A stretch of DNA of 52,835 nt from a virus (IMGVR_UViG_3300001683_001688:1-52835); one strand, 5' to 3'. Positions 12,327-52,806 are shown, numbered from the stretch's first letter. The notes: generated from the letters alone by a model not told the origin. Program-made: numbers and translations.

Positions 12327-12340
12327 CCTCGGGGTATAAA

Positions 12341-27625: not shown

Positions 27626-27696
27626 GATTTGAAATTTATGTTATAAAACAGCAGCAACGTTTAGTATATTAAACATGTAAATCGCAAGGAGAAACA

Positions 27697-29126: not shown

Positions 29127-29131
29127 GCACA

Positions 29132-29608: not shown

Positions 29609-29620
29609 GGCAAAGATCAA

Positions 29621-30706: not shown

Positions 30707-30729
30707 ATTGTGCGCATGGTGTGTATAAT
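30701..30729 (+). promoter_or_regulatory. sigma70-like promoter for dnaE
   Basis: ATGTAA-N17-TATAAT. Confidence 0.55.
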
Positions 30730-30759
30730 AGCTATAATAACATTATAACAGGCTAGTGT

Positions 30760-34314: not shown

Positions 34315-34385
34315 AATAAATTTATTCAAGTATCTATTCATTGGTTAATATAAAAGATATAAAAAGGCAGCATAATGAGGTATAG

Positions 34386-35291
34386 GTGATAACTTTTCCA
34401 ATTAGAAATCTATTCATAGAGGGTCCAGATTGCTCTGGAAAAACAACTCTCGTAAGAGACATACATAATTCGACAGACTTTAGGCTTCATATTCATGACA
34501 GATCACAAATTTCAAGAAAGATATTTAGTGATCTATATAATAGAGACTTAGATTTTATTGATGATGATCTTCATGCAGAGCTATCAAATCTAAATAATAG
34601 ATTTATATTTCTTCTTCCTCCTTTTAATATAATAAGAGAGAGATATATTCAAAGAGGCGATGATTTTCATAGTGACATATCTTCAATAAGAAAAGTATAC
34701 GATGCTTTTCTAGATTCAGAATCAAAGTTTAGTGGATACCCGAACGTAAGATACTACATAACACCTGATACTAAAAACCTTGTTTACGGAATAATGTTTC
34801 AGTTAAACGTGATGAGAGAGAAAAATATCCTTGACATTGCTGAAGAGGTGAATCAGTTTGTTAATTTTTCAGGAGGGGAATCTTACCCGCTATCTTTTAC
34901 AATCTATGATAATGGAAAATTTGAAAATGCTGATTCTAACATATTAAAATATGAACCAGAGGCTAAATACTATGAAAAGATATTTACATCATTTCACGAA
35001 AAGATCACAAATGAACTTAATGGAAAAAATGAGTACAATAGGAGAGAGGATTATTCTTCAAGACGCTTTGTGCACACTAACGATAGCTGTATATCATTTA
35101 TACAGGCATCTGTAAGAAATAATATACTTGACTTTCATGTAGTTATAAGGTCATCAGATGTAAAGAGGGTTTTTCAATACGATATGATATTCCTCTACTA
35201 TCTTGCTAGCACGTGCTTTGAAAGGTTTAGCGATCATTGTAGCTCAGTAAGATTAAGATTTAACTTAAACTCTGCTCATATCATAGAGTAA
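34386..35291 (+). CDS. dNMP-kinase-like P-loop domain fused to minimal thymidylate-synthase-fold domain
   Basis: N-terminal FIEGPDCSGKTT and HDRS; C-terminal SSRRF...DSCISFIQ...LDFHVVIRSSDV..VFQYD...NSAHI, matching TS core motifs. Confidence 0.75.
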   Translation: MITFPIRNLFIEGPDCSGKTTLVRDIHNSTDFRLHIHDRSQISRKIFSDLYNRDLDFIDDDLHAELSNLNNRFIFLLPPFNIIRERYIQRGDDFHSDISSIRKVYDAFLDSESKFSGYPNVRYYITPDTKNLVYGIMFQLNVMREKNILDIAEEVNQFVNFSGGESYPLSFTIYDNGKFENADSNILKYEPEAKYYEKIFTSFHEKITNELNGKNEYNRREDYSSRRFVHTNDSCISFIQASVRNNILDFHVVIRSSDVKRVFQYDMIFLYYLASTCFERFSDHCSSVRLRFNLNSAHIIE

Positions 35292-35315
35292 AATAAACTA
35301 CAAAATGGAGATATA

Positions 35316-36326
35316 ATGAGAAAAGCGCTAGTTACTGGAGGATGTGGTTTCATAGGGTCAAACTTGACACACGAACTTGTGAAACAAGGTTGGCAGGTTG
35401 ATATAGTAGATGATATGTCAAATGGTCATCTTGAGCTACTTGAAGGTCTAAAGATAAGGGTTATTCCTGTTGACTTACTAGAATCATTCTATGATATGAT
35501 CAACACAACGAATAGAGTCTCAGAAACAGTTCATGTAATACAAGGTGATTTTGCTCACGAGGGCATATGCAAAAATATATCTGAAAAGATGTATGACATA
35601 GTTTTTCACCAAGCAGCTATTCCAAGAGTACTATTCTCAGTTGAAAACCCTTCTTTAACAACTAATGTAAATATAGGTGCAACAACAAGACTATTTGAAG
35701 CATGCATTGGAAATGTTGACAGGGTCGTATTCGCATCATCATCTTCAGTATACGGAGGTGCATCAATTCTTCCAACACTAGAGACTACAGAGAAGAGTCC
35801 AAAATCACCTTATGCTTGGCAAAAGCATTCAATAGAGGATCTTGCAAAGATATTTTGCAACTTGTATGATATTGATATTGTTTGCTTGAGATATTTTAAT
35901 GTTTTCGGTCCAGGTCAATATGGAGACTCTCCGTACTCTACAGCAGTATCTGCATGGTGTCATTCGATTAAAAATAGCTTACCAATGAGAAGCGATGGCG
36001 ATGGAACGCAGTCTAGAGATCTCTGCTATGTTGACAATACAGTTCAAGCAAATATCCTAGCAGCGACATCAGATCAGTCAAGTCATGGAGGCTTCAATGG
36101 AAGATGTTATAATATAGCTTGCGGCGATAGAACTACAAATAATGAAATTTTAGATTTCTTTACAGAGAGATATACGCATGCTATTGTAAAAAATGCACCG
36201 TGGAGGGCTGGAGATGTTATGCATACCCAGGCTGATGTCTCTAGTGCAAAGGAAGATTTTGGGTATGAGCCAGCTGTTAGATTCTGGGATGGGCTTAATA
36301 GAACAATAGAGTGGTGGAATATCTAG
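35316..36326 (+). CDS. NAD-dependent nucleotide-sugar epimerase/dehydratase
   Basis: VTGGCGFIG, FASSSSVYG, YAWQK (YxxxK), LRYFNVFGP, GDGTQSRD. Confidence 0.92.
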   Translation: MRKALVTGGCGFIGSNLTHELVKQGWQVDIVDDMSNGHLELLEGLKIRVIPVDLLESFYDMINTTNRVSETVHVIQGDFAHEGICKNISEKMYDIVFHQAAIPRVLFSVENPSLTTNVNIGATTRLFEACIGNVDRVVFASSSSVYGGASILPTLETTEKSPKSPYAWQKHSIEDLAKIFCNLYDIDIVCLRYFNVFGPGQYGDSPYSTAVSAWCHSIKNSLPMRSDGDGTQSRDLCYVDNTVQANILAATSDQSSHGGFNGRCYNIACGDRTTNNEILDFFTERYTHAIVKNAPWRAGDVMHTQADVSSAKEDFGYEPAVRFWDGLNRTIEWWNI

Positions 36327-36743
36327 ATGCCAGATTTATATGATAAGAAACACGTAAAAACTTCGTGGATTTCAAGAAAAGCAAAAAAAGTTGAAAAGCC
36401 ATGGGGGCATGAATTATCATGGACAGCATTTAGCGGAATCTTTGGAAAAACACTTTTCATAAGAAAAGGATGCAGAACAAGCTTGAAATATCACAATATT
36501 AAATCAGAAGCTTTGTTTTTAAGATCTGGGTCTGCAATGATTATTCACGGAGATGAGTTATTTGTTACATTGCCATTGATATACCCACTTGAAGAATCTT
36601 TGTTTTCACAAGGTGATACTCTGCATGTTCAATCAGGGTCTCCTTATAGAATAATAGCGCTAGAAGATTGCGAAATAGTTGAGATAGGAAATCAAGTAGA
36701 TAGTTCACCAGTAAGATTAGAGGATGACTATGGCAGAGCGTAA
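36327..36743 (+). CDS. cupin, mannose-6-phosphate isomerase-like
   Basis: VEKPWGHE, TSLKYHNIKSE, VRLEDDYGR. Confidence 0.75.
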   Translation: MPDLYDKKHVKTSWISRKAKKVEKPWGHELSWTAFSGIFGKTLFIRKGCRTSLKYHNIKSEALFLRSGSAMIIHGDELFVTLPLIYPLEESLFSQGDTLHVQSGSPYRIIALEDCEIVEIGNQVDSSPVRLEDDYGRA

Positions 36744-37308
36744 TGAGTATATAAGAATACCAGAGTTTATCATATATACTGGTCCAATGTTTGGATCAAA
36801 GACAACAAAGTTAATAGCAGCTGTTGATAGATTTAGGTATCAAGATAGAAATATTTTAGCATTTAAGCCATCTCTAGACGAAAGATATTCAAGTTCAGAA
36901 ATTTGTACTCACAATGGTGCAAGAGTTGATGCTTTTGTTGTTAAGTCAGGTGGCGATATAATTAGAATAGTTAATGATACCAGCGACGTTGATGTCGTTG
37001 CAGTTGATGAGGCTTTTATGATAGATGGTGTAGCAGAATCTCTTCTTACTCTATTTAGAGAGGGAAAAACAATAGTAGTTTCATCTCTTCAACTGTCTGC
37101 ATCTGGAAATGTATTTGAAGAGATAAAAGATATGATGCCCTGGGCTACAAAGATAGAGGTGTGCCCTGCAGTTTGCACAGTAAGCGGTTTAGATGCGTAT
37201 TATACACATAGAAAATTTGAAAATATGAAAGAGATAACTGTTGGCGGTTCAGATCTCTACGAGCCTAGATGCTGGTTTTATCACGGATTTATGAATCAGC
37301 ATTCTTAA
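36730..37308 (+). CDS. tdk: thymidine kinase
   Basis: GPMFGSKTT, DERY, THNG, VAVDEAF, VGGSDLYEPRC. Confidence 0.9.
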   Translation: MAERNEYIRIPEFIIYTGPMFGSKTTKLIAAVDRFRYQDRNILAFKPSLDERYSSSEICTHNGARVDAFVVKSGGDIIRIVNDTSDVDVVAVDEAFMIDGVAESLLTLFREGKTIVVSSLQLSASGNVFEEIKDMMPWATKIEVCPAVCTVSGLDAYYTHRKFENMKEITVGGSDLYEPRCWFYHGFMNQHS

Positions 37309-37323
37309 TTTAAGAGGTATTTT

Positions 37324-38328
37324 ATGATTGAACCTAACAGTGTTAATTGTGTGATATATCACGCAGACTGTACTGATGGTTTTGGTGCAGCATACTCAGC
37401 GTGGAAGCTACTGGGAAATCGTGCTGAGTACTACCCTTGTAAACATGGATCACATCCCCCAAATGTTATCGGAAAGCGAGTAGTTATACTTGATTTTTCA
37501 TTTGGAAATCAAACAATAAAGAATATGATTAATGAAGCTGAAAGTCTTCTTGTAATAGACCATCACAAGTCTGCAATGGTTGAGCTTCATGACATTTCAA
37601 ATACTCATTTTGATATGACAAAAAGCGGAGCAATGCTTACATGGGAATATTTCCATCCAGGAAAAGAGCCGCCCAAATTTATCAAGTACATACAAGATAG
37701 AGATTTATGGAAGTGGGAGCTTGAATATTCAAAAGAATTCAGCGCGGCATTTGATATGGTTCCGTTTGAATTTGAGGAATTTGAAAAGTTTGAAGATGAC
37801 TCTGTCTTTGACGATGCAGTAAGAAGAGGCTCATATATTCTTGCCTACTCTAAGACTGTTATTAAAAAAGTGTGCGAGAAAGCATCTAGAAGAAGGTACA
37901 GCGGAATGGATGTTCTTGTTGTTAATTCTTCTCACTGGATGTCAGAGATCGGTGCAAGACTTTCACCAGATTGTGATTTTGCAGTGATATGGTACTATGA
38001 TCACGAAGATAGAATGATTAAGGTTAGCCTAAGATCTTTTCATGATAGAATAGACGTATCAGAGATAGCAAAGAGGTTTGGCGGCGGCGGACACAAAAAA
38101 GCTTCTGGGTTTCAATTGTCTGGAGAGCTTATCGTAGATGATATCTTTGATGTATTCGACGGAGAAGATCATCAGGTCGACGCTAGCAAAGTTGAAGAGA
38201 TTCGAGTTGATCTTGAAAATTTGACAAAAAAAGCTTCAGAGGCAGGTGTATCTGTTGTATCAGACATAGATGGACACACAGCTGTAGTCGTACAAGGTGT
38301 ATCAAGTGGATCGTCCGAAGTGGGATGA
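37324..38328 (+). CDS. DHH/DHHA1 phosphoesterase
   Basis: YHADCTDG, ILDFS, IDHH, DRDLW, SLRS, GGGGHKKASG. Confidence 0.88.
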   Translation: MIEPNSVNCVIYHADCTDGFGAAYSAWKLLGNRAEYYPCKHGSHPPNVIGKRVVILDFSFGNQTIKNMINEAESLLVIDHHKSAMVELHDISNTHFDMTKSGAMLTWEYFHPGKEPPKFIKYIQDRDLWKWELEYSKEFSAAFDMVPFEFEEFEKFEDDSVFDDAVRRGSYILAYSKTVIKKVCEKASRRRYSGMDVLVVNSSHWMSEIGARLSPDCDFAVIWYYDHEDRMIKVSLRSFHDRIDVSEIAKRFGGGGHKKASGFQLSGELIVDDIFDVFDGEDHQVDASKVEEIRVDLENLTKKASEAGVSVVSDIDGHTAVVVQGVSSGSSEVG

Positions 38329-38716
38329 AATATGGATGTCTTTTGCTCACAACATCTCTAGAAGATCTTGTGACAATAGGCACAAAGTAGGTGCAATAGT
38401 TGTAACAGGTGACAATACTCAAGTATTGTCAGTAGGGTATAATGGAAACTATACCGGTGGGCCAAATATTGTTGAATCTGATATTCCAGGAGAGTCTGGA
38501 ATGATACACGCTGAGATCAACTCTCTTTTAAAAATGGATTATAATAATCCTAAAATAAAAAATATGTATGTGACTTTATCTCCTTGCAGAATGTGCGCAA
38601 AGGCTATTGTAAATGCAGGAATTGATGCTATCATTTACGATGAAGAGTACAGAGATTCATCAGGAATTGATATTTTACGCGATGCTGGTGTTAAAGTTAA
38701 AAAATGGAACAAGTAA
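38297..38716 (+). CDS. dCMP deaminase
   Basis: RPKWDEIW, VGAIVV, GYNG, IHAEINS, SPCRMC. Confidence 0.9.
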   Translation: MYQVDRPKWDEIWMSFAHNISRRSCDNRHKVGAIVVTGDNTQVLSVGYNGNYTGGPNIVESDIPGESGMIHAEINSLLKMDYNNPKIKNMYVTLSPCRMCAKAIVNAGIDAIIYDEEYRDSSGIDILRDAGVKVKKWNK

Positions 38717-38743: not shown

Positions 38744-39019
38744 ATGCAGACACTTGATGCAAAGGATGTTCAATATATTATTGATATGATTCTATTAAAA
38801 AATGAAAATCTTGGTCAAGATATATTTGCCGGAAGTGGAAAAAATAAAAAAATCGTTGTAAAAGATGGATTAAAAGTTCGCCATATTCCAACGGGTCTTG
38901 TATATACAGTAATAGAGTATATTAATGATGATTCTTCTGGGCCAGCTATTAGATGCTCTCGCCCAGGAAAAGAAATTGTGATTCCTAGCAATGAATTTAA
39001 CAAGTATGTGAGGCACTAA
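38744..39019 (+). CDS. hypothetical protein (SH3/KOW-like C-terminus)
   Basis: GLKVRHIPTGLVYTV beta-barrel pattern; GGGAG RBS. Confidence 0.6.
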   Translation: MQTLDAKDVQYIIDMILLKNENLGQDIFAGSGKNKKIVVKDGLKVRHIPTGLVYTVIEYINDDSSGPAIRCSRPGKEIVIPSNEFNKYVRH

Positions 39020-39720
39020 TGTCAAAATTTACAAACAATGACCTTAAAAAGTCGATAAAAAATAGTCTAAACTTAGACACAAAAGAAGAAAATCGATTAG
39101 ATGAATCTTATGTTGTCCAAGATAAACAGTTTAATTTATCAACTGAGCTATTAAGTGAGGCAAATAAAAATAACCATATAGAACTCTATAATAAATATGT
39201 CAAAAATTTCAATAGAATAAGTGCTGAGCTTGATACGGTTGATAGAAAATCTGCTTCATCAAACTTTTCTAATTATAGGTCGCTTAAGATTGATGAAACA
39301 TATAACCTAAACGGTGTATATCTTCACGAGCTTTACTTTGCAAATATATCAGATTTGCAAAGTCAGATATCTATGGACTCTATTTCATATATGCGCCTTG
39401 CTAGGGATTTTGGATCTTTTGACGCTTGGCAGGATGATTTTATAGCTTGTTGCTTGTCCAATCAATGTGGATGGGCAGTAACATATTACAATACTTACTT
39501 AAAGAGTTATGTCAATTGCTTCATAGATCTTCATAGTATAAATGTTCCATTTGGAACATACCCTGTTATAGTTATGGACACGTGGCAGCATGCATACTAT
39601 AGGGACTACTTAAAAGATGTAAAGACGTATACTTATGGAATGATGAAACAGTTAAACTGGAATATCATTGAGAAAAGATTTAACAAAGCTGAAAAGATAG
39701 CTACAGCTCTAAGAGGATAG
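39019..39720 (+). CDS. Fe/Mn superoxide dismutase-like protein
   Basis: HIELYNKYV, YLHELYFANI, FGSFDAW, GWAV, VMDTWQHAYYRDY, LNW. Confidence 0.8.
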   Translation: MSKFTNNDLKKSIKNSLNLDTKEENRLDESYVVQDKQFNLSTELLSEANKNNHIELYNKYVKNFNRISAELDTVDRKSASSNFSNYRSLKIDETYNLNGVYLHELYFANISDLQSQISMDSISYMRLARDFGSFDAWQDDFIACCLSNQCGWAVTYYNTYLKSYVNCFIDLHSINVPFGTYPVIVMDTWQHAYYRDYLKDVKTYTYGMMKQLNWNIIEKRFNKAEKIATALRG

Positions 39721-39721
39721 A

Positions 39722-40369
39722 ATGAGATCTTTAAGAAATGAAATAAGAAAAATAATTCTTGAGCAAGTAGATGAGCTATTTTCAGACGTAGAAGACGTTA
39801 CAAGACTTTCTAGAGACTCTATTGATGATCAGATAGATTCATTTTTTATAAAGTTTGAAAATGACTCTGTGAAAGATGAAGGTCAAGAAGACGATATGTT
39901 GAGATCTCTATCTGAAATGTCGCTTAGAGCGCTTATAAGTGAACAAGACGCGCCTGAGGGAGCACCAGATGTAGAAGATGATCCTGAAGAAGACGAACTT
40001 GCTGACGAAGAAGTTGTTGATGAAGAAGAGGAAGTAATTAGTGATCCTGCAGGCAGCGAAGATGTAGATGTAACTGAGCCGGCTGAATTACCCAAGCTTC
40101 CGATAGATGTAGATGCTTTTATAAAAAGAGTTGCAAGACTTGCTCTCAACGCAGACACTTTGCTTGATGTAAAAACAGTTATAGTAAATAGAGCATTAAA
40201 CTTCCTTCGGGATAATTATGATGAAAATCACGCTGAGCAAGCATCTCAAATACTAGACACTCAATTTGATTTTAATATAGGCGGTAAAAAAGATCCACCT
40301 GCTGCACCCGATGCTGTAGGTGCATGGGCTGGAGGAACTGGAGGACTCGGCGGCGGCGGCGGCGGATGA
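39722..40369 (+). CDS. acidic hypothetical (probable head/scaffold-associated) protein with poly-Gly C-terminus
   Basis: MRSLRNEIRKIILEQ N-terminus, D/E-rich linker, ends GGTGGLGGGGGG. Confidence 0.7.
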   Translation: MRSLRNEIRKIILEQVDELFSDVEDVTRLSRDSIDDQIDSFFIKFENDSVKDEGQEDDMLRSLSEMSLRALISEQDAPEGAPDVEDDPEEDELADEEVVDEEEEVISDPAGSEDVDVTEPAELPKLPIDVDAFIKRVARLALNADTLLDVKTVIVNRALNFLRDNYDENHAEQASQILDTQFDFNIGGKKDPPAAPDAVGAWAGGTGGLGGGGGG

Positions 40370-40671: not shown

Positions 40672-41388
40672 GTGAGACTTTTACTAATAATAGCTGCTTT
40701 ATTTATACCTTTATCATCTTTTGCAACTGATGATAATTCTTCTCAGTATAGAACAATTGAAGTAAGATCTTCTAGAATATCTAGTGTTGAAAGAAATGTT
40801 AGAGATGCTGCTGTTTATATTTTAATAGGATTAGGACACGGGTCTGGGTCTTTGATAAAATACAAGGGTACTCAGTTCATTATCACAGCACAGCATGTTG
40901 CTAGTGGAGAGATAGGATCTAGCTATATTGTTAAAAAGGAGAAAGAGGTGCAATCTGCATCTTTAATCTATTCTGATTTAACAAATGACATAGCTGTTTT
41001 ATGGTTAAAAAATGAGTTTGAATCAGTTGATCCTATGAGATTTTCTACAGAAAAAACAGTTCCAGATATAGGAGATGAAATAACCTATTCTGGGTATCCG
41101 TCAAGTCACGATATAATGACGTATAGGGGACGAGTTGCAGGATTTGAAAGTATTCCTAGTGCAGGAAATCAAATTCTTTTACATACGTTCGGATGGTTCG
41201 GATGTTCAGGATCTGTTGTGTTTGACACAGGCGGAAATATTGTTGGAGTTCTATGGGGAATAGATGTTTTAAATGGAGTCCCAGTTGAATCAATGATATG
41301 GGTAAGCCCAATTCAAAATCTAGACATAGACGAAGCACTTTCAGAGTTTTGTAACTCTACAGCAGAAGAAGTGAGAGCTTGTAGGTGA
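40672..41388 (+). CDS. secreted trypsin-like serine protease
   Basis: Signal peptide; ITAQHV (His), DIAVL (Asp), GWFGCSGS (Ser). Confidence 0.8.
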   Translation: MRLLLIIAALFIPLSSFATDDNSSQYRTIEVRSSRISSVERNVRDAAVYILIGLGHGSGSLIKYKGTQFIITAQHVASGEIGSSYIVKKEKEVQSASLIYSDLTNDIAVLWLKNEFESVDPMRFSTEKTVPDIGDEITYSGYPSSHDIMTYRGRVAGFESIPSAGNQILLHTFGWFGCSGSVVFDTGGNIVGVLWGIDVLNGVPVESMIWVSPIQNLDIDEALSEFCNSTAEEVRACR

Positions 41389-42875: not shown

Positions 42876-44780
42876 ATGCAAGTCGTTGTTAAAAGATCAG
42901 CGCTTTTTACAGCGCTTAAAAATATTATAAGTGAAAATAGAACTGGTGAATCTGGAAGAATAGATGATATAATGAGAGATGCTGCTATGGGCGAAGAGCC
43001 CATAGAGGCAACCGAGCAAATGGCGACACAGCTATCAGTTGACATGCCAGATGTCTCCGACGTTGATTTTGTTCCTGCAACTATTGAACAGCTGTCAAGA
43101 TCAGCTTATGTAATTGCGAATGCAGTTCCGCCCGATGAAGTAGAGTGGTTCTATAGAATGCTTCATGATATGCTAGACCAATCTCTAGATAGAGATTCTA
43201 AAGTATCTGAAGAAGAGGTAGAAGAGATCGAGGTAGAAATAAATGAGTCTATTGTTAACAAGGTTATATCACTTCTTCTTGAGCAGGATGATGAGTGGAC
43301 TGATGATGAGCTTGATAGGATTGAAGTTGCTAAACATCAGGTTGAAGAATATCTAGAGTCAATTAATTTTGGACACTCAGAAAAAGAGATGCCATCTGGA
43401 AAAGTACTCAATCTTCCCTTTTGGCAAGCTATTATGAAACTATCTCTTGATGACACAATCGGGCCTAAAAGCCTAGACCCGAAGATTGCAGAAATTATAC
43501 TTGACTTATCATCAGAAGAGGCAGAAAGAGTTTTAGATATTATAAGAGAAACGTGGATGGGATATGCACGAATACCAGTTCCTAAGCAAGATCCAAATCA
43601 GATCGCAGTCAGACAGGTTCTTGCAAAAGAGCTAGATGTGCTACTCACACAATACACGTATTGGGATATAATAGACATATATGAAAAAAGATTATCAGAC
43701 GAGTCTACATCACCCGAGTGGTTTCAAGATCGTCTAAAACACAAAGATGGAGAGATGTGGAGAGTCGGAACAAGAGGTATGATTGACACTGTAAAGACTA
43801 GAATAAGATCTCCTGAAAAGAGAGAGAGAACTGACTTCACTGTTAAGTCAGGTCACTATAGAGAAGACACTGGTGATGATGAAGATATAGCGACGTCGAG
43901 CGGAATGTCTGAGGAAGAACGGCTTAAGACTCTAGATTCTCTTGCGCCGCTCTTTGGATTTAGAAATGCAAGCGGTCTTCGCCAATGGAGAATGAAATTT
44001 CCAGAAGCAATCTTTAAATCTGTAATAGGGTCAGAGGGCGGAATCAAAGCATATGAAGGATATTCCGACGTAGTATTTGATTACCTTTCAGCCCTTTTAG
44101 ACAATCTATCTGATGCGGTCGCACAAGTTTCTGAAAATCTAGAAGATGCAGCTGAGAAAGATCCTGATAACGAAGATATTTCTGAAACGCTAAAAGCACT
44201 CCAGCAAATTGATATAGATCTTGTGGAGATAAAAGAGAAGAGGGATAATGATCCAGAAGAGGCTCTTGATACAACAATGCTATTGACCACACTCGGAGGC
44301 AAGGTTCTTAGACAGGTGTTTAGTACTTATTTTTACAGAAATGAGTTTATAGATTATGCCAGGGAGATGATGAAACATATGACCGCATCTATAGCTGGTA
44401 TGGGAGTTAATTCTAAAACAGCAAAAGGCTTTGCAAAGATGTTTAACGGAGAGGTTGCTCTTCAGCTGTTTAACTCTGGTGCAAGGCAGATGGAGAAGTT
44501 GAAAGCAGGCGGTATAACATCTGAGATATATACACAATCACTTTCAGTTGCGGAGAGATTTAATAAAGATTTTTTTGGAGGCAAGCGTCTTAAAGATGTC
44601 AAGGCGACATTTATGAAGCTGCTTAAAGATGATGCCAAGTTGCAAAAAGCATTACTACATGCAATTCCAGACGCTCTATCTTGGGGAAAGATAGAAAGAG
44701 AGAACCCGCAGCTTAAAGTACAATCTCCAGAAGACTTAGCTGAGCAAAAAATTAGAAAGTTAATCTCAGGAATGATTTAA
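42876..44780 (+). CDS. large acidic hypothetical protein (probable internal head protein)
   Basis: 634 aa; LKNIISE, VISLLLEQ and KIRKLISG motifs. Confidence 0.7.
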   Translation: MQVVVKRSALFTALKNIISENRTGESGRIDDIMRDAAMGEEPIEATEQMATQLSVDMPDVSDVDFVPATIEQLSRSAYVIANAVPPDEVEWFYRMLHDMLDQSLDRDSKVSEEEVEEIEVEINESIVNKVISLLLEQDDEWTDDELDRIEVAKHQVEEYLESINFGHSEKEMPSGKVLNLPFWQAIMKLSLDDTIGPKSLDPKIAEIILDLSSEEAERVLDIIRETWMGYARIPVPKQDPNQIAVRQVLAKELDVLLTQYTYWDIIDIYEKRLSDESTSPEWFQDRLKHKDGEMWRVGTRGMIDTVKTRIRSPEKRERTDFTVKSGHYREDTGDDEDIATSSGMSEEERLKTLDSLAPLFGFRNASGLRQWRMKFPEAIFKSVIGSEGGIKAYEGYSDVVFDYLSALLDNLSDAVAQVSENLEDAAEKDPDNEDISETLKALQQIDIDLVEIKEKRDNDPEEALDTTMLLTTLGGKVLRQVFSTYFYRNEFIDYAREMMKHMTASIAGMGVNSKTAKGFAKMFNGEVALQLFNSGARQMEKLKAGGITSEIYTQSLSVAERFNKDFFGGKRLKDVKATFMKLLKDDAKLQKALLHAIPDALSWGKIERENPQLKVQSPEDLAEQKIRKLISGMI

Positions 44781-45187
44781 TGAGATTGTTAGAGTTCTTA
44801 AACAAGACTGGTGAAGCTTCTCTTCCAACAGGATCAGTCGAGATAGTGTTAGGGGCTCTAAGAACAACTGTTCCTGACCCCAGTCTGCCCATCGATGCAA
44901 ACATTTCAGATTGGATAACAGCCTCTGACCCAGAGAGACTCATAAAGACTTTTGTATTCGACACACCTGCACACGTGGCATATTTTGTAAGTGAATTAAT
45001 GCTATATCAAGAAGAGACTCATCATCATGCCAAGATCATTATAGATTTTAGAGATGTAACAGTAGAGACATATACACATGATATTAACTCAGTTACTAGA
45101 CAAGATATTGTACTAACAGAATTTTGTGATGAAATATATAATGATATCTCTTTTTTAGACTATGCGAGAAATAATGTCAGTAGATAA
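44780..45187 (+). CDS. pterin-4-alpha-carbinolamine dehydratase-like protein
   Basis: LIKTFVF...EETHHHAKI...ETYTHD...VTRQDI. Confidence 0.8.
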   Translation: MRLLEFLNKTGEASLPTGSVEIVLGALRTTVPDPSLPIDANISDWITASDPERLIKTFVFDTPAHVAYFVSELMLYQEETHHHAKIIIDFRDVTVETYTHDINSVTRQDIVLTEFCDEIYNDISFLDYARNNVSR

Positions 45188-45574: not shown

Positions 45575-45763
45575 ATGGCTTCAGGCAAAAACGAAAAATT
45601 TAAGTTTGACAAGTTTATAAAAAATATTGTTGAAAGAGAAGAAAGCGGTAGACAAAGAGTGGCAGATCATTTTGAAGGACAGGAAGAGCTTCCTCAAAGA
45701 AAATATAATAAGCTATACAGAGAGCTCTGGCAGAATTCAACAAGATTTAGGAGAAAAAAGTGA
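45575..45763 (+). CDS. small basic hypothetical protein
   Basis: GGAG RBS after an ATATTTA motif. Confidence 0.6.
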   Translation: MASGKNEKFKFDKFIKNIVEREESGRQRVADHFEGQEELPQRKYNKLYRELWQNSTRFRRKK

Positions 45764-46410
45764 GCAGAATAGATTTAAATACTCCTGATGATATTATTTC
45801 ATTTTTGAGAATTCTCGCAGAAGAGAGTGTAGATCATGCGCAAGAAATGCTTTCTAACAAATTGAAGAAAGATGAAAAGGTGTATGGCAAGCTCGACGAG
45901 GTCGATCCCCCTGAGGATGATGAATCAGCGGGTGATGCACCAGCTGAAGATGAGGAAGATGAGGTTATAACAACAGAAGATGAGACAGCTAGTCTAGAAG
46001 TCTCTATGGATAGTATATCTGACGCTATTAAGCAACTAAGAAGTGGAAGATCTGTTGATGACAGCGCAATGAAGACACAGCTTAGGACATATTTTAATAG
46101 ACTAGAAGAGACAGAGAGAGAGGCGCTTTTAGCATTTTTAACAGCATTCTCTGGGATACTAACTGGTGTTGCATCTGGCGAGAATGCTCCTGACCCTAGC
46201 GACTCTCCATATAATATTACGATGACTCACACAGGCGAAGAAGAGACTGTTAATATCTCTGAGCCAGTAACTGATGAAGAGGATATTGAAGTAGATGAGG
46301 AAGAAGATACTTCTAGCGAGCCTGCAGATAAGCCACCTATAAAGGCTGGAGCTAAAAGGCAGTCTCTTCAAGAAATTAGAAAGAAAGTTAGAGAATTAAT
46401 GACATCCTGA
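45760..46410 (+). CDS. acidic hypothetical (probable head-associated) protein
   Basis: FLRILAEE N-terminal and LQEIRKKVRELM C-terminal motifs; D/E-rich linkers around a LRSGRS helical core. Confidence 0.7.
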   Translation: MSRIDLNTPDDIISFLRILAEESVDHAQEMLSNKLKKDEKVYGKLDEVDPPEDDESAGDAPAEDEEDEVITTEDETASLEVSMDSISDAIKQLRSGRSVDDSAMKTQLRTYFNRLEETEREALLAFLTAFSGILTGVASGENAPDPSDSPYNITMTHTGEEETVNISEPVTDEEDIEVDEEEDTSSEPADKPPIKAGAKRQSLQEIRKKVRELMTS

Positions 46411-46675: not shown

Positions 46676-47986
46676 ATGAATTCTTCTGAGAGACTTTTAG
46701 TAGAGGCTATAAATCAAAGTATATGTGTGCTAGACGAGAAGAGACAACACGAGTATGGTTCCCAAAAGCACCTCGATGAACTTGATAATCTAATAGGGGA
46801 TATTAGAGATCTTAAAGATTCATTAAGGAAAGGTCCAGACAGATTTAAGCATAGAAAAGAGATGCACAGGCTTCAAGATGCTATCGGAGCGATTCGCTAT
46901 CTCAAAAGTGTAGCAAAGAGATCTGGAATTAATAACGGTCTACTTGCTGAGGGTGGATTAAAGGCACCAGAGCTAACTGGAGATGTGATACTTGATCCTC
47001 AAACTGCAGAGGCGGCAGTTGACTCATACATTAGCGTAATTGAAATGTGGAATTCTCAACATCTTTCTCAGGCTGGTTTAGATCCAGTAACGCCGGTTAG
47101 GGCAGTTGGATCAACGTCGTATTATGACATCGACTCTCCTGAAGAAGTTTACGGCGATGTCGATTATCTTGTCTCGTTTCCAGTTGAAGTAGAAGAAAAC
47201 TCAACAGAGAAAGAGATTAGGGACGCAGAGAATAGAGTTAAAAGAGAATACGAGAAGGAATTTGTAAAATTTTTGAGAACATCGCGAGAGGTTCAACAAT
47301 ATGCAAATGTTGATGCGACGCTTAGAAGCTCTCCTCTTCTTGTTATAGTAAAGCTACCTGATGGTGGATACGTCCAGGTTGATACAATTGTTACGTTCTC
47401 TAGGTTTATACCCAACGAAAGCGGCGAAGAATGGATGCCAGCAAGGTGGACACCAGAGAGAGGCAGAAAGGGATATACTATTGGACATCTATATACAGCT
47501 TTGGGCGGCTATTTTAATATGTCTATTGGTGATAGAGGCGTGCTAGCAAAGACACGAGACGGTAAAAGAGTCCCCTTCTCTCAGAGAAAAGGAACATCTT
47601 TATCTTCTATAAGCAGGAATATTCGCACATTTTTACGAGATATAGCTATTGAGATTGCTGGTGATGATGTTGTTGAGAATGAGTTGCTATTGAGATACCC
47701 TGGAGTTGATCCTGATAATATCACAATAGCAGATCTAGCAAAAGGGATACGCGGTCTGGCTTTAACTCTTGGGGGAGCCGGAGCTATCTCATCTTCTGAC
47801 GAGATGCTAGGGTCAATTCTTAATCTATATGCTGCTGGATTAAAGAAAAATATTGACAGTAAGCTTTCAAGAGGTCTTGATCAAAAGTCCTATGATAAGC
47901 TTAATAAACTTAACAGCACTGTATATACCATCGTAAGTGATGTGTTTTCAGGAGGAGACGTAGATAGTGGATTACTTCATATCTGA
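46676..47986 (+). CDS. Pol-beta-superfamily nucleotidyltransferase with N-terminal helical domain
   Basis: AVGSTSYY...YGDVDYLV (GS..DxD) and third Asp in YVQVDT; domain begins after LLAEGG. Confidence 0.7.
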   Translation: MNSSERLLVEAINQSICVLDEKRQHEYGSQKHLDELDNLIGDIRDLKDSLRKGPDRFKHRKEMHRLQDAIGAIRYLKSVAKRSGINNGLLAEGGLKAPELTGDVILDPQTAEAAVDSYISVIEMWNSQHLSQAGLDPVTPVRAVGSTSYYDIDSPEEVYGDVDYLVSFPVEVEENSTEKEIRDAENRVKREYEKEFVKFLRTSREVQQYANVDATLRSSPLLVIVKLPDGGYVQVDTIVTFSRFIPNESGEEWMPARWTPERGRKGYTIGHLYTALGGYFNMSIGDRGVLAKTRDGKRVPFSQRKGTSLSSISRNIRTFLRDIAIEIAGDDVVENELLLRYPGVDPDNITIADLAKGIRGLALTLGGAGAISSSDEMLGSILNLYAAGLKKNIDSKLSRGLDQKSYDKLNKLNSTVYTIVSDVFSGGDVDSGLLHI

Positions 47987-48620
47987 TATGCACTTTGGCC
48001 ACAAGAAGATTATAGGATATTGTAATCGACCGTGGAAAACTGTTCAGGAGATGAACGATGGTATCGTTAGGAGGTGGAATCATAGCATAACAGACGGAGA
48101 TAGAGTGTTCGTTGTGGGTGATGTTTTCCTCATGGATCCAAAAGATGCCACACCTATCGTCAATTCTCTTAACGGCTATAAGATTTTAATAGCTGGAAAT
48201 CACGATAGAAGCGAAAAGACAATGCTGGCTTGCGGGTTTGATGAGTATCACAGGGAGTATGACTATATGCTTGAAGGATTTGGCCCAGGCCTGCTTAATC
48301 ACTATCCCCTCCCTGACACTGTTATAGTAGATAGAGGCTACAGCTTTATGGTTCACGGTCACATTCACGATCCTCCAATGATAAGAGGATTAAAGATAAA
48401 TGTCGCTGTAGACGTTAATGATTTTAAGCCTGTGTCAGAGTTGAATCTAATGGAGGTGATGCCCCTGCTCACGAATAAGTCTGAACAAGAGGTGTTTGAC
48501 GTTAGCATAGTTGACGGAAGAGTAGAAGCAAAGATACTTATTGATTCAGCTGACTTCTCCGGTGTATCTGATACTGTATACAGAATGCTTAAGCAATATT
48601 ATAAGAAGGGAAAACGATGA
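47967..48620 (+). CDS. calcineurin-like metallophosphoesterase
   Basis: FISDMHFGH, VVGDVF, IAGNHD, NHYP, HGHIH, NVAVD. Confidence 0.88.
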   Translation: MDYFISDMHFGHKKIIGYCNRPWKTVQEMNDGIVRRWNHSITDGDRVFVVGDVFLMDPKDATPIVNSLNGYKILIAGNHDRSEKTMLACGFDEYHREYDYMLEGFGPGLLNHYPLPDTVIVDRGYSFMVHGHIHDPPMIRGLKINVAVDVNDFKPVSELNLMEVMPLLTNKSEQEVFDVSIVDGRVEAKILIDSADFSGVSDTVYRMLKQYYKKGKR

Positions 48621-51472
48621 AGTTAGGATTATACGGCGGAGGATTTAAACCTTTTACAACTGGTCACTTCTCTAAGCTAGCTAACGCTATTAGGGATAAT
48701 GATAAAGTGATTCTCTTTTATGGTCTTCAGGAGAGAAAACTTCCAAAGCTATCTAAGAGAACAGGGAAGCCCCTTAAGTCACAGCAGAAGTTTAGAAAGA
48801 TTGGAGGCTCTGAAAGACTATACACCCCAGAGATCTCTAAGGAGATCTTTGACATCTATGAGTCTGCTATTGAGAGAGAGATCCCGTCTATTGAGATTGA
48901 GTCCACAATGGGAACAACTCCTATGAGAAGGATATTTGAGATCCTAGAGTCATTCGCTGCAGACCCAACATTATATGAGAAGGTTACAGTCTACGGTGGC
49001 TCTGATATGCCAGCACCCTATCTTAGAGAGCTTCATAGATTTGATGATCTTGTTCGCAGTGGAAAAATTCAGTTTGGCGCTGTTGCTCCGGAGTCTATTG
49101 ATGACTATCTTGACGAAGAGAGACTTGCAGCTCTTGTGGGTAGATCAGAGGAAGAGGCAGCAAAGTCACTTGCGAAATACTACTATCCAGACTTTGACCC
49201 AGAGATTGACGAGGTTTCTCAAGACATCTTAGACATGGCAAGAGTTCGAGGGACAGCTGTTCGAGGGCATGCCTCTGGTGAGGCTGGTATCGAAGAAGCA
49301 AAGAGATTTCTACCTCCATTTCTTAACGACGATGAGAAGCAGAGAGTTGTTGACATACTACTTGGGCACACAGAAAATCCAGTAACAGAGTCACGCATAC
49401 GCAGAGCATTAATAAGAGCTTCAGCTAGATTTGCTAGAGAGAGACTCTTGAGGGAGCAGGGAGATAAGATTCAGTCAGTGCCTCCAGGGAGAGAGGCACA
49501 CATATACAATCTCTACGAGGATCTAGCGATGCCATTATCTGACATAGTAGAGATAGCAAGGCTAGCGCTAGATGGAAAGCTTGAGAACTTCCAGGAGAAG
49601 GTTGACGGTCAGAATGTAACTTTCACTGTTCGGGACGGAGTTCTTAGATTCTTCACCAAGATGAGTCTTGTCTCTGATAGAGATCTAGGGAATGCTAGAA
49701 GAAAGATCGGTGAGGGAATGGGGATGGACTTAGCTGTCATCAACGACAAGTATGGGGATAGACCTGGTGTCGCTGCTGCGTTCTCTCTTGGGTATGAGGC
49801 GCTTGAGCCAGTAGCATTACAGTTTCAGGATTCTCTATTTAAAAATGGTGATGTCGTAGTTGTATCAGGCTTGATGACATCTGTGAACCCAAACACTATC
49901 ATCTATGATGCAGACACCTTTAGGTTTATAACGCCAGTCTCTTTAACTGATGACCCAGTAGACCAGGGAGCTTATGATCAGTTCTTGCAGCAGGCAAGAG
50001 CAGCAACGACAGATGCATTCTCAATGGACTCAGTTCCAACAGCAAAGCTTGTTGAGGACCTTGAGACTGATGACGCTGAGATTGAGAGCTTGATGTCACA
50101 GCTTGACTCAGTTGTTAGCGACGTTGGGCTATCAGTTGGGTCTTCTACTGTTGGTGAGTATGTTATTGCAAGTGTTGAAAAGCTTCTTAGAGAAAAGTAC
50201 ACCTTTATCCCGGAGGATCTTGTTCCAGCAGTTGCAAATAGGTTTGCAACCAAGAGGGGTGCAATTGCAAATGCTTTTAAGAAGCACTCTGACACCACGC
50301 CTGAGGATTACGAGCAGCTCAAGAGAATTGACGGAATCAAGGCAGACGTTGTTGCAGAGGCAATAGTTCCTCTTGAGGCAGTGATTCAGAGGCTTGGTGT
50401 CATGGTGATCGATAAGCTTGATCTAGCGCTCACAGCGAGTAATCAGAATGAGCTAAGCATATTTGTGAAAAATGCACGAAGACAATTTGAAAGTGGTGGC
50501 ATCATAGCAGATGAGAAGACTCTTGAGAGAATTAGGATATCGCTAGCGAGGCTCGAGGCTAATGAGGATCTATTCACAAAGGCTACAGAGGGGATAGTGT
50601 TCACCTTCAATGGAAATACTTACAAGCTAACCGGTCTATTCACTCCAATCAACAGGTTGCGTGGTTTCTTTGAATACGGATCAGCCAGGCTGCCCCAGAT
50701 GTACAGTGATGAGATGAATGAGGTTATAATAAGGGCGGCAAGAAGGTTCCTCCAGGAGGGAGGAGACGTCTTTAAAGACAGCTCTGGCGCTCCACTTACA
50801 GTAGAGATTGAGCTAGCTAACGTAGAGCCAACACTTAGAGATTTCTCATCTAAGTTTCTTGAGCCTCTAGACTTGGGAGACTATGGTGCAATAGGTAGCA
50901 CAGGAAAAGCATCGAGATCTGGAGACTTAGATCTTGCAGTTCCAGTCTCAAAGGATGTGTATGACGACAGGAACAAGCTTAAGCTTTATAAGAGGGAGCT
51001 TGTGTCTAATCTGATATCACTGGGTGCACCCGACGCAAAGATCACAGCCTCGAACATATATGTTCTCTTTCCTATATCCGGAGAGACTCAGGCTGGAGAG
51101 TTCGTTCAGATAGATTTAATGCCCACTCCGTGTGTTGGAGACACGTGCTGGCTCATGTCAGGTGTCGGAGACGTTGGTGTTAAGGGAACATATAGAAATC
51201 AGCTACTCAATCTTATAGCTCGAGAGAGAGGTCTTGAGGGTAACCCTCGTGAGAAGGTGACGATAGCTTACCCGGGCGGTCTTCAGATAAAGACACTTCC
51301 TGAGCGAGATAATCGGGGCAATCCCATCGATCCGTCTGATCCAAAGAGCAAGAGGAAGTGGAAGAACGTCGGCCCAAAGATATCTGATCCCGCAACCATA
51401 CTAGGGATGCTAGGTGTTCCCGCTGCACCTGAAGATGTCGAGACGTTTGAAGAGCTTGTTGACGTAATGTGA
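48617..51472 (+). CDS. three-domain protein: HxGH cytidylyltransferase-like + KxDG ligase-like (DUF6267-type) + Pol-beta nucleotidyltransferase
   Basis: YGGGFKPFTTGHF; QEKVDGQN...EGIVF...YKLTGLFTPIN; AIGSTGK...SGDLDLAV...FVQIDLM. Confidence 0.75.
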   Translation: MKLGLYGGGFKPFTTGHFSKLANAIRDNDKVILFYGLQERKLPKLSKRTGKPLKSQQKFRKIGGSERLYTPEISKEIFDIYESAIEREIPSIEIESTMGTTPMRRIFEILESFAADPTLYEKVTVYGGSDMPAPYLRELHRFDDLVRSGKIQFGAVAPESIDDYLDEERLAALVGRSEEEAAKSLAKYYYPDFDPEIDEVSQDILDMARVRGTAVRGHASGEAGIEEAKRFLPPFLNDDEKQRVVDILLGHTENPVTESRIRRALIRASARFARERLLREQGDKIQSVPPGREAHIYNLYEDLAMPLSDIVEIARLALDGKLENFQEKVDGQNVTFTVRDGVLRFFTKMSLVSDRDLGNARRKIGEGMGMDLAVINDKYGDRPGVAAAFSLGYEALEPVALQFQDSLFKNGDVVVVSGLMTSVNPNTIIYDADTFRFITPVSLTDDPVDQGAYDQFLQQARAATTDAFSMDSVPTAKLVEDLETDDAEIESLMSQLDSVVSDVGLSVGSSTVGEYVIASVEKLLREKYTFIPEDLVPAVANRFATKRGAIANAFKKHSDTTPEDYEQLKRIDGIKADVVAEAIVPLEAVIQRLGVMVIDKLDLALTASNQNELSIFVKNARRQFESGGIIADEKTLERIRISLARLEANEDLFTKATEGIVFTFNGNTYKLTGLFTPINRLRGFFEYGSARLPQMYSDEMNEVIIRAARRFLQEGGDVFKDSSGAPLTVEIELANVEPTLRDFSSKFLEPLDLGDYGAIGSTGKASRSGDLDLAVPVSKDVYDDRNKLKLYKRELVSNLISLGAPDAKITASNIYVLFPISGETQAGEFVQIDLMPTPCVGDTCWLMSGVGDVGVKGTYRNQLLNLIARERGLEGNPREKVTIAYPGGLQIKTLPERDNRGNPIDPSDPKSKRKWKNVGPKISDPATILGMLGVPAAPEDVETFEELVDVM

Positions 51473-52806
51473 TTACAGATCCCGATCTCAGCGGATATCT
51501 TCCAAAGTTTGAGGGATATATGCTTCGGCACCTCTCATCTGAAAAGAGTGCAGCCTCTGCACAGAGGGCTGTTGACCACGTCAATGCTGCTATTGCTGGA
51601 AGAAAGGATGGGATTTTAGCAGAGGTTCATCTTAGAAGGGCAGTGAGACAGATATTAGAGGAGTCTCTTGGAAGGTCTGGGTCACAACAAGCTTCAGGCA
51701 TCACAAGAGTCAATTTTACAAATATTGAAACAGAATATTTCTCCAACGCAGCTTCATTTGGGGATGGAAAAGGAGAAGTCTCCGTCGCAATGTCAATTCT
51801 TGGTCTGGGGTTACCCGAAGAAGGAAGACATCCAAACGTCAGGGATCAGATACGCGATGTAAAAGCTCAAAAATCTACTGCTGGTACAATTTTTGGTTCT
51901 CCAGAAGGAGAGGCCGCAGATAAATCTCTTGTGGGAGGATCTACTAGAAGCTATGATCTATTGTTTTCCCAGACGATAGTTGATAATGTCTCAAGAATTC
52001 TTGATATTCCTATTGAATTACATCATGGAGTACCAGTAGGAGCTAGAGTAGAGGTAAAAGAGATAAAAACTGCATTTACACCAACGAAGTCCAGCAAAAA
52101 ATTTAGGCTTGGAACAGAGTCAAGGGCAGCAGTCTTTGGAAGCGCAGCACAAACAGAAGTTACGATTATTTCAAAAGTTTGGCATTGCATAATAAAAGAG
52201 CTGGAGAGGCTTGAAGGGCAAGAAGCAGAAAAAGTAGAACAAGACAATGCTTACCAACAGTTTCCGTATAGAGAAAAATTGAATCAATATGCAATTAGAA
52301 AAGGACTAAGTCAGTCAGATATAGATTTCTTTTTCTCAGGCAATGCACGATATGCAATGATTAAAAATTTGGGGGCCGAAGGTGCGGGCGGCTTGACAGA
52401 AAGAGGTGGAGACATATCTAGAACTGAAAAGACATTGAAGATTTTTAATTTTCTTAAAAGCGTAGATGGCAATCAATCAACGCGCCATTTTTGGTGGCAG
52501 CCAATTATAAGAAGTAGAAGCATGGAATGCGGGCGCTTTCGCGATGTCGTCATAGCATCCCAAGGGCCCAGCGGATTAACATTTCCAAATTATTTGGCAA
52601 GTCTTGATGTATCTAATATTTTGAAAGGGTTTGACTATCTTGCTCTTGTAGACTCCTTAGGGTTCTTTATTTTAAAAGCAGATACAACACTATTTAGTAA
52701 AGCCACTGTTGATGCAGTAACTGATGGCGGAAGGGTTAGAATACAAATTGATCTTTCTGATTATTTTAGCGGAGGGGCTCGAGTTGCGGAGCTAGATAAT
52801 GATTGA
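51469..52806 (+). CDS. hypothetical protein, possible PD-(D/E)xK nuclease
   Basis: GKGEVSV...SYDLLF...RVEVKE pattern after a HLRRAVRQILEE linker. Confidence 0.5.
   Translation: MITDPDLSGYLPKFEGYMLRHLSSEKSAASAQRAVDHVNAAIAGRKDGILAEVHLRRAVRQILEESLGRSGSQQASGITRVNFTNIETEYFSNAASFGDGKGEVSVAMSILGLGLPEEGRHPNVRDQIRDVKAQKSTAGTIFGSPEGEAADKSLVGGSTRSYDLLFSQTIVDNVSRILDIPIELHHGVPVGARVEVKEIKTAFTPTKSSKKFRLGTESRAAVFGSAAQTEVTIISKVWHCIIKELERLEGQEAEKVEQDNAYQQFPYREKLNQYAIRKGLSQSDIDFFFSGNARYAMIKNLGAEGAGGLTERGGDISRTEKTLKIFNFLKSVDGNQSTRHFWWQPIIRSRSMECGRFRDVVIASQGPSGLTFPNYLASLDVSNILKGFDYLALVDSLGFFILKADTTLFSKATVDAVTDGGRVRIQIDLSDYFSGGARVAELDND

Follow-up and report, generated by a model that had tools for sequence, protein, structure and literature searches.

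The end of the virus record IMGVR_UViG_3300001683_001688 raises a question of both place and substrate: where does a string of nucleotidyl-transfer enzymes, joined to one another by conserved basic helices, act, and on what? The IMG/VR record comprises 52,835 bases (this whole stretch is called the window below) at a CheckV completeness of 20%, with a G+C content of ∼38% and almost all of its genes on the + strand. An earlier note on this DNA had placed four overlapping + strand open reading frames (ORFs) at 46676–52806, and its coordinates and motifs were borne out; we call these ORFs g436, g217, g951, and g445 (Table 1). The enzyme cluster that they form is best explained as a conserved operon, carried by an uncultured T4-type jumbo phage of marine, vent-associated origin. 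The boldest reading, to which we assign a probability of roughly 0.45, is that phages of this clade make a precursor of ∼1100–1660 residues carrying three or four enzymes, which would be packaged in the head, cut by the prohead protease, and injected as an end-repair or counter-defence kit, with the last module serving as an arms-race cassette.

Successive ORFs of the cluster overlap by 20, 4, and 4 nt, and the earlier note had counted them as four genes. Four ORFs are indeed present in the window, but they probably represent three genes, with g951 and g445 in a single frame. We compared contigs from the four best public runs, which come from four studies labelled hydrothermal vent metagenome and contain 0.65–0.97 of the sampled window words, over positions 50900–52100; the window may itself stem from one of these samples. 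Every contig that crosses 51468–51471 has two bases fewer than the window (4 of 4 runs), both among contigs otherwise identical to the window and among those of a variant strain, and the summed depth of the contigs with the gap equals the whole depth at this site. The window reads ...GTA ATG TGA TTA CAG... here; when one TG is removed, the translation becomes V-M-I-T-D and g951 and g445 form one frame of ∼1395 residues. In relatives, P0002 (90% identical to g951) reads ...FEELVEVMLSDPDLSGYLPKF... without a stop across the junction between the nucleotidyltransferase (NTase) and the g445 part, and the fragment P0129 holds the NTase end, the connector, the leader, and the first 90 residues of a g445-type cargo in one chain. 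Residues 1–83 of g445 match a stretch that follows the NTase within the same polypeptide in relatives (BLAST: P0002, P0003, and P0005), and residues 1–68 align with the family's post-NTase connector (hhalign probability 94.5%, E 7.7e-8). The stop–start overlap of g951 and g445 is due to the extra 2 nt in the window (TGTG vs. TG), and the split is most likely an assembly difference; such contigs are evidence of presence, not of absence, and a rare TGTG variant is compatible with them. The protein of ∼1395 aa has the order HxGH NTase, KxDG adenylyltransferase with a helical insert, Pol X-like NTase, connector, and swappable cargo.

Table 1. Coordinates of the genes, modules, leaders, and single sites of the enzyme cluster, counted from the first base of the window.
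Feature	Position	Strand	Description
g436	46676–47986	+	ORF, 436 aa; leader-like helix, ∼80-aa module, second helix ending L-A-E92 then GG, NTase, C-terminal domain
g436 E92	46949–46951	+	Predicted boundary before GG
g217	47967–48620	+	ORF, 217 aa; calcineurin-like metallophosphoesterase, no leader helix
g951	48617–51472	+	ORF, 951 aa
Module 1, HxGH (PPAT/NMNAT-like) NTase	48617–49381	+	g951 1–255; GGFKPFTTGH, VRGTAVR
Leader/linker 1	49382–49456	+	g951 256–280; basic amphipathic helix ending L-R-E280 then Q
Module 2, RNA-ligase-like covalent nucleotidyltransferase	49457–50710	+	g951 281–698
K328	49598–49600	+	In invariant E-K-x-D-G-Q; EKVDG starts at 49595 (FQEKVDGQN)
Leader/linker 2	50711–50758	+	g951 699–714; helix ending L-Q-E714 then G-G
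Module 3, Pol X-like palm–thumb NTase	50759–51469	+	g951 715–951
TGTG run	51468–51471	+	Window 2 nt longer than every crossing public contig
g445	51469–52806	+	ORF, 445 aa
Connector and leader 3	51469–51663	+	g445 1–65, ending L-E-E65 then S
Module 4, variable cargo	51664–52806	+	g445 66–445; GE..., Y-D-L-L-F, V-E-V-K pattern

The modules of this protein are separated by a recurring element. At each boundary stands a basic amphipathic helix of 15–25 residues that ends in [LIVM]-x-E and is followed by G-G, Q, or S. Both linkers that the earlier note had described in g951 were recovered, VTESRIRRALIR...LLREQ at 49382–49459 (translation VTESRIRRALIRASARFARERLLREQ) and (E)MNEVIIRAARRFLQEGG at 50711–50764 (translation EMNEVIIRAARRFLQEGG), and both NTase domains begin, as it had claimed, at LxEGG. 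These two starts are among four [LIVMF]-x-E-G-G sites in the long + frames of the window, the other two lying in an exonuclease and in an 890-aa protein. The start of the g951 NTase reads [LIVM]-x-E-G-G in all 29 homologues with an NTase domain, and that of the g436 family reads h-x-E in 31 of 31, with G-G directly after it in 30 of the 31. At the start of the ligase-like module, E280 is near-invariant (Glu in 28 of 29 close relatives, with [LIVM] at P3 in 25 of 29), and the same junction reads I-K-E-G-G in 12 of 13 members of a distant 674-aa family.

These are also the points at which relatives split or fuse their modules. The leader at the ligase start is the N-terminus of the protein in 37 of 63 homologues and has an HxGH domain in front of it in 7; the Glu is residue 20–25 of its own chain in 20 of 21 stand-alone ligase–NTase relatives and residue 13–26 in the short proteins of the g436 family (n = 8). 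Of the ten closest loci, two have the HxGH domain fused, five have it as an ORF of its own whose end falls just before the leader, and two (L010 and L011) have all three modules separate. In these last two, the ligase ORF starts MMIRQLIREMLMLE-NG, and the NTase ORF starts M-G-G, preceded by a stop codon either directly or at a distance of four codons. Three members of the g436 family (P0089, P0090, and P0108) likewise start M-G-G. The leaders are the only long stretches with a predicted local distance difference test (pLDDT) score <50 in the structural model described below (model residues 1–7, 12–21, and 432–451), where they appear as low-confidence helices.

The earlier note had compared the linkers with the N-termini of stand-alone proteins in the window. 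This likeness was found again: basic helices open the ORFs at 16236 (MLITEKRLRRLIRRALLEQ) and 39722 (MRSLRNEIRKIILEQ), and those of relatives too. These two ORFs encode unrelated proteins, one at 16236–17183 (helix of the type ending L-L-E-Q; faint phage-metallopeptidase match, E 6e-4) and one at 39722–40369 (I-L-E-Q), and, judged by sequence, both may be targeted or processed in the same way. The region directly upstream of the cluster encodes conserved proteins with no family match at 42876–44780 (634 aa) and 45760–46410 (216 aa).

A protease of the appropriate kind is encoded in the lineage. The syntenic relative G001, a 118-kb contig, contains a Peptidase_S77 protein (E 2.6e-26) that is 31% identical to T4 gp21 (E 1e-20), together with TerL, portal, scaffold-like proteins, and a gp23 homologue (E 6e-32). 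Peptidase_S77 was detected in 4 of 10 related records (fragments, 24–78% complete) and in 0 of 14 control genomes. It lies 7–9 kb from the HxGH–ligase gene in three records of the 674-aa family, and in G006 a distance of 2.2 kb separates the HxGH–ligase gene from TerL, portal, and protease downstream of it. The neighbourhood in Microcystis phage Mel-JY01, the only isolate with a relative, resembles this G006 layout. In the gp23 homologue of G001, L-L-E52 and L-R-E61 stand at the place of T4 L-T-E65 when the anchor VRR (residue 88 in G001, 98 in T4) is used, and we infer from this alignment that they occupy the position of T4 E65; passages of PMC5694885 give the T4 propeptide a length of 65 residues. 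The second of these sites, ...QLLRE-Q, resembles the g951 junction ...RLLRE-Q. The G001 genes for protease and capsid protein enclose three small paralogues (L084 12916–14653). In the window itself, 9353–9955 carries the PHROG label "head maturation protease"; the fold is that of ClpP and the surrounding genes are metabolic, and it was discarded as a candidate prohead protease.

The earlier note had stated that the T4 prohead protease cuts after (I/L)-x-E, which agrees with passages of PMC9026906, where gp21 is described as cleaving after L/I-X-E and the first 10 residues of IPIII as sufficient for packaging. In the same source and in PMC5694885, as far as the relevant passages go, short N-terminal propeptides direct T4's internal proteins and Alt into the head; the latter gives the capsid-targeting sequence (CTS) a length of 10–20 residues, and a passage of PMC3012670 describes the T-even internal proteins as diverse defence proteins with the CTS alone in common. 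The system found here is similar to T4 IPI–III and Alt in these respects, with a short amphipathic propeptide ending L/I-x-E, a gp21-family protease in the lineage, and exchangeable cargo (passages of PMC9026906, PMC5694885, and PMC3012670). T4 Alt is likewise described there as an enzyme delivered with the DNA, whereas delivery is here predicted. The two also differ in that several enzymes with internal leaders share one precursor here, the leaders are longer (15–25 aa) and basic, and the cargo consists of nucleotidyl-transfer enzymes, not of an ADP-ribosyltransferase or nuclease inhibitors. A second parallel is provided by the ejection proteins of the giant phages phiKZ, 201phi2-1, and SPN3US, where many head-internal proteins including enzymes are cut after Glu by a diverged gp21 homologue and the propeptides are thought to target the proteins (passages of PMC5694885). 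Their motifs are A/S/G-x-E and their propeptides often exceed 100 residues, unlike the leaders here, and the passages concerned mention no multi-enzyme polyprotein. Our full-text literature search returned no description of such a multi-enzyme architecture.

In the mechanism that we propose, the helices would serve in the manner of T4 capsid-targeting propeptides, taking the precursor into the core of the prohead, where a gp21-type prohead protease would cut after Glu (E280 and E714 of g951, E65 of g445, and E92 of g436). The released enzymes would enter the next host together with the DNA and would there, early in infection, process broken nucleic-acid ends by trimming, extending, and sealing them: the g217 phosphoesterase could clean 3′ ends, the two minimal Pol X-like transferases could fill or tail them, and the RNA-ligase-like domain could seal them. 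For the whole chain, from packaging through cleavage and injection to end repair, the odds seem to us evenly balanced.

Several observations weigh against this mechanism. Head genes and a gp21 homologue are absent from the window, a 20%-complete fragment, and Peptidase_S77 was not found in 6 of the 10 related records (24–50% complete); in G001, ∼70 kb separate the enzyme cluster from the head genes. The G001 paralogues that resemble internal proteins have N-termini ending ...QTIVE, ...QTMVE, or ...QTIVQ, unlike the basic leaders; one of these peptides ends exactly at residue 10, and by sequence the paralogues look like T4-style internal proteins with a different CTS. The T4 late-promoter word TATAAATA occurs upstream neither of the cluster nor of the G001 head genes, and its absence is uninformative. 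The motif L-x-E is short and common by chance. A 21-column hidden Markov model (HMM) built from 89 leader segments and run over 328 ORFs (the window and eight loci) detected its own families only, with three domains at ≥8 bits vs. 0 in reversed sequences, and was therefore rejected as a detector; a post-hoc basic-helix regular expression gave 31 matches vs. 8 in reversed ORFs, with 11 of the 31 within the first 25 residues, which is suggestive only. Leader-like helices occur at C-termini as well, namely those of 42876 (...QKIRKLISGMI), of 45760 (...IRKKVRELMTS), and of the split HxGH and NTase ORFs of L010 and L011, and such helices fit a docking or linker role as well as a propeptide. Conservation of the G-G that follows the Glu goes beyond what a protease site requires, and the E-G-G segment may be part of the NTase fold. 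Finally, g217 and the stand-alone HxGH domains of relatives have no leader; judging from this, they may act in the cytoplasm, and consequently not every enzyme of the cluster is predicted to be packaged.

Most of these points are also what one would expect if the proteins were uncut, unpackaged, multi-domain repair or modification enzymes of the cytoplasm, with the helices as flexible linkers or docking helices and E-G-G as the start of the NTase fold. This is the strongest of the alternatives, and we regard it as rather unlikely, though a serious competitor. It would account for the helices that, in split genes, the upstream ORF keeps at its C-terminus and that also end the proteins at 42876 and 45760, for the near-invariant G-G-x-K/F after the Glu, for the leaderless g217 and HxGH proteins, and for the position of the cluster amid metabolic genes and far from the head genes in G001. 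It fits poorly with the finding that one and the same h-x-E ending precedes three unrelated types of domain and resembles the predicted capsid-protein site of a relative, that natural M-G-G N-termini fall on the predicted P1′ residue, that the lineage has a protease of the matching specificity class, and that the fourth module is exchanged in the manner of T4 internal proteins. Of the earlier note's view that the linkers are cleaved, the part that stands is the conserved [LIVM]-x-E at the points where relatives split or fuse modules and the gp21-type protease in the lineage; the cut itself is predicted.

The second half of the question, what the enzymes act on, depends on the identity of the modules. 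The earlier note had named an HxGH domain, a KxDG ligase-like domain, a metallophosphoesterase, and two Pol beta-type NTases, and all of them are supported by profiles, conserved motifs, and models. Relatives of g951 numbered 63 at E ≤ 0.001 among the candidates scored. A family profile of the HxGH module (42 members) matched the PPAT 3nd5 at E 3e-5 over 75 residues, and Pfam CTP_transf_like matched 10 of the 42 members at E ≤ 0.1 (best E 0.0019, all under the cut-off). The motif G-G-F-K-P-F-T/H-T/A-G-H was present in 8 of 8 close sequences, with T-G-A-H in 12 of 12 distant ones, and R-G-T-x-V-R in 7 of 8 close sequences; we take the family motifs to be H/T-x-G-H after the first strand and a second T-x-x-R. 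The HxGH and ligase-like domains are coupled in at least 580 tblastn-confirmed viral stretches, which suggests a polynucleotide substrate. A tblastn search of isolate phages with the HxGH domain alone gave no match below E 0.5, and kinship with the virion-detected "cytidylyltransferase" of cyanophage S-CREM2 (described in a passage of PMC10665884) was accordingly not established; PMC12801897 mentions a TagD-type enzyme only.

In module 2, the EKVDG reported by the earlier note is indeed encoded from 49595, and E327, K328, D330, G331, and Q332 are invariant in 42 of 42 and 31 of 31 aligned homologues. Also invariant in the aligned homologues are T-E658-G659-I-V-F and Y-K670-L-T-G, the latter with a single lysine at the position of motif V; we take the E658–G659 and K670 regions to be motifs IV and V, names that were not assigned by a tool. 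An AlphaFold2 (AF2) model of g951 265–951 from a 31-row alignment had a mean pLDDT of 83.3 (80–95 in the domains), and the ligase-like domain in it is interrupted by an all-helical insert of ∼170 aa (model 222–383). The model was compared by VIA-align with 48,161 representative chains, and the figures given here are from the 50 matches listed. Nine of these cover the ligase part (model 17–440), and all nine are RNA ligases, with 168–208 residues aligned: NgrRnl (5cot, Z 7.9), T4 Rnl2 (2hvq, Z 7.5; 1s68, Z 7.2), Trl1 (9r3w, Z 7.0; 6n0t, Z 7.0; 9qw7, Z 6.7), REL1 (1xdn, Z 7.0), T4 Rnl1 (9do4, Z 6.7), and archaeal Rnl3 (5d1o, Z 6.5). These scores of 6.5–7.9 are middling, since a Z below 8 can reflect a common arrangement and the domain was folded jointly with the NTase. 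Pfam RNA_ligase (PF09414) matched 8 of the 42 members at E ≤ 0.1 (best E 0.0034, 18 bits; cut-off 27) and did not match the window protein. On the basis of the model, module 2 is best described as RNA-ligase-like, outside any named ligase family.

For module 3, structure prediction followed by Foldseek, a check that the earlier note had suggested, returned a Pol X-like NTase: the model of g951 265–951 matched Pol beta/lambda at E 3.7e-6. The best VIA-align match was Pol beta (3k75_D, Z 12.2, root-mean-square deviation 3.8, 184 residues aligned), and TdT (Z 10.6), Pol lambda (Z 10.5), Thermus PolX (Z 10.4), and African swine fever virus (ASFV) Pol X (Z 10.2, 162 of 176 residues aligned) were also listed. 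Terminal uridylyltransferases (TUTases), poly(A) polymerases, and CD-NTases match only the palm (∼100 residues, Z 6.3–9.1). The 8-kDa and fingers (helix-hairpin-helix) domains were not found in module 3, the matches spanning Pol beta 139–338 only. G760, D770, D772, and D833 are invariant (positions 496, 506, 508, and 569 of alignment A3). Similarity in sequence to known families is slight, with Pfam DNA_pol_B_palm matching 1 of 42 members (E 0.028) and the family profile matching Pol lambda at E 0.056; a PDB search with the single g951 sequence gave no match below E 0.3.

The NTase of g436, which has 48 relatives, retains the same kind of site, with G145, D161, and D236 invariant and D163 nearly so. 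Residues 85–267 of g436 align with g951 707–858 (hhalign probability 90%, E 1.6e-6), and because the alignment spans h-x-E-G-G, G-S, G-D-h-D, and Q-V-D, the sequences indicate that the two NTases are paralogues. No fold was assigned by our searches to the first ∼90 and last ∼170 residues of g436, and a PDB search with the single sequence gave no match below E 0.3, nor did one with the g436 profile. The g217 protein reached the gathering score of Pfam Metallophos (27.8 bits, cut-off 21.5) and matched phrog_547 (E 2.3e-41) and PDB 1xm7 (E 8.6e-10); its similarity to the ligase-associated PdeM is weak (E 0.004, well under the cut-off).

The fourth module differs from the others in its variability. 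We grouped 40 homologue tails and g445 by single-linkage BLAST (E < 1e-4, ≥80 residues aligned), and the groups following leader 3 had sizes of 25, 8, 3, 2, 1, and 1, with g445 separate from five other groups. This pattern in the sequences indicates that the fourth module is exchanged among at least six unrelated families. For g445 66–445, only 3 fragmentary relatives were found among 1.84 billion representatives, and the protein homologue search returned no g445 relative of 244–779 aa. No Pfam match was obtained for g445, and no PDB match below E 0.3 with the single sequence; its AF2 model, from 7 alignment rows, had a pLDDT of 38.6. It had an Atlas score of 0.81 with no family, and the nearest named clusters, four families of PD-(D/E)xK type, stood at 0.77, which is chance level. 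The PD-(D/E)xK-like pattern Y-D-L-L-F ... V-E-V-K is kept in the fragment P0128, and the nuclease that the earlier note had thought possible is a motif-level lead. The profile of the 8-member cargo group gave no PDB match, and assignment of this group as an ADP-ribosyltransferase was dropped, its sole weak Pfam match being that of P0009 (E 0.004, under the cut-off).

Taken as a set, the enzymes make repair of broken nucleic-acid ends the likely role, and RNA is somewhat more likely than DNA to be the substrate because the sealing domain resembles RNA ligases. The RNA repair suggested by the earlier note is partly upheld: the phosphoesterase and the RNA-ligase-like fold fit it, although the searches turned up no kinase. 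As in the RNA heal-and-seal systems of T4 (Pnk with Rnl1/Rnl2) and of bacteria (Pnkp, which combines kinase, metallophosphoesterase, and ligase, with Hen1), a calcineurin-type phosphoesterase adjoins an RNA-ligase-like KxDG adenylyltransferase, and the structural matches listed for the sealing domain were all RNA ligases. Unlike in those systems, neither a 5′-kinase nor a methyltransferase was found here, and the module differs from known RNA ligases in its ∼170-aa helical insert, in having no known C-terminal ligase domain, and in its HxGH and Pol X-like partners. Two points count against end repair in particular: without a 5′-kinase in the cluster, a full heal-and-seal pathway is not evident, and the structural matches of the ligase region reach only Z 6.5–7.9, with Pfam RNA_ligase under its cut-off. 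The NTases resemble ASFV Pol X in consisting of palm and thumb only with three conserved carboxylates, and the combination of polymerase, ligase, and phosphoesterase recalls ASFV Pol X with its ligase and bacterial LigD. However, sequence similarity to Pol X is marginal (E 0.056), the NTases are two paralogues, the ligase is RNA-like rather than DNA-like, and the LigD polymerase is primase-like and not Pol X. The set therefore recalls T4 Pnk/Rnl, Pnkp, ASFV Pol X with ligase, and LigD, and is a member of none of these systems.

It is also conceivable that the enzymes, packaged or not, act mainly on small nucleotides, the HxGH domain rebuilding NAD+ or an adenylylated cofactor and the NTases making or destroying signals in a way that blunts immunity. 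The HxGH module is closest to PPAT/NMNAT, and in the window it matches the NMNAT family phrog_3462 (E 0.0014); P0011 is named NMN adenylyltransferase by one source, and CD-NTases and OAS are among the palm matches listed (Z 6.3–7.8). Nevertheless, the similarity of the NTases to Pol X extends over palm and thumb (Z 10–12, 160–200 residues), in contrast to the palm-only matches of CD-NTases and TUTases, an RNA-ligase-like domain accompanies the HxGH domain in the viral stretches counted above, and no NAD-salvage partner was found in the cluster, so we consider this explanation improbable. The nucleotide signals considered by the earlier note accordingly receive less support than repair, with a Z of 12.2 over 184 residues for Pol X against ∼7 over ∼100 residues for CD-NTases.

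That the junctions are cut by some other protease, such as the trypsin-like protein of 40672–41388 (Pfam Trypsin_2, E 9.3e-14; faint match to an arterivirus peptidase family that cleaves E|G, E 0.003), the ClpP-like protein of 9353–9955 (CLP_protease, E 1.6e-25), or a host enzyme acting at Glu-Gly or after Gly-Gly, is very improbable, because the trypsin-like gene, which opens with a stretch that by eye resembles a hydrophobic signal peptide, is missing from every one of the 10 close loci, although these retain the enzyme cluster, and was rejected as the maturase for this reason, and because ClpP-type proteases are not known as site-specific maturases of such a kind.

A ten-residue T4 peptide loads a protein into the capsid and delivers it to the next cell; if injection of the precursor-derived enzymes proves true, phages have extended this trick to multi-enzyme polyproteins whose last module can be swapped. 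It would then provide a sequence rule by which injected proteins could be predicted in uncultured T4-type phages, as well as natural leader and cleavage cassettes for the packaging of foreign proteins. Compact enzymes would also become available for characterization: a Pol X of minimal size, and an RNA-ligase-like domain that has a new insert and is coupled to an HxGH partner in at least 580 viral contigs. The system would likewise bear on the way in which phages forestall host nucleases within the first seconds of infection.

The surroundings of the cluster are conserved to a variable degree. The gene order from the superoxide dismutase gene to the cluster is common to 7 of the ten closest loci, the g436-type NTase is kept in five of them, and g217 is kept in four. 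Homologues of Fe/Mn superoxide dismutase (39019–39720) and pterin-4a-carbinolamine dehydratase (44780–45187) are both kept in syntenic relatives. The replicative polymerase, at 30760–34314, is DnaE-like (Pol III alpha; phrog_405, E 7e-226), while the head genes of the lineage are T4-type. The regions 6868–14065 and 26687–38716 hold a dense set of genes of nucleotide and DNA-modification type, including two thymidylate-synthase-like genes, a dCMP deaminase, a nucleoside deoxyribosyltransferase, thymidine and thymidylate kinases, a glutamine-synthetase-like protein, a thioesterase, an amidohydrolase, two sulfotransferase paralogues, and a DHH phosphoesterase, which suggests a hypermodified base. 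Downstream of the cluster, a GroEL-like chaperonin and a sigma-70-like factor are encoded in L003 (16707–18317 and 19380–20237), L005, L006, L007, L009, and L012. In L012, a helicase-like ORF of 536 aa (7728–9338) is inserted between the g436-type NTase and the phosphoesterase.

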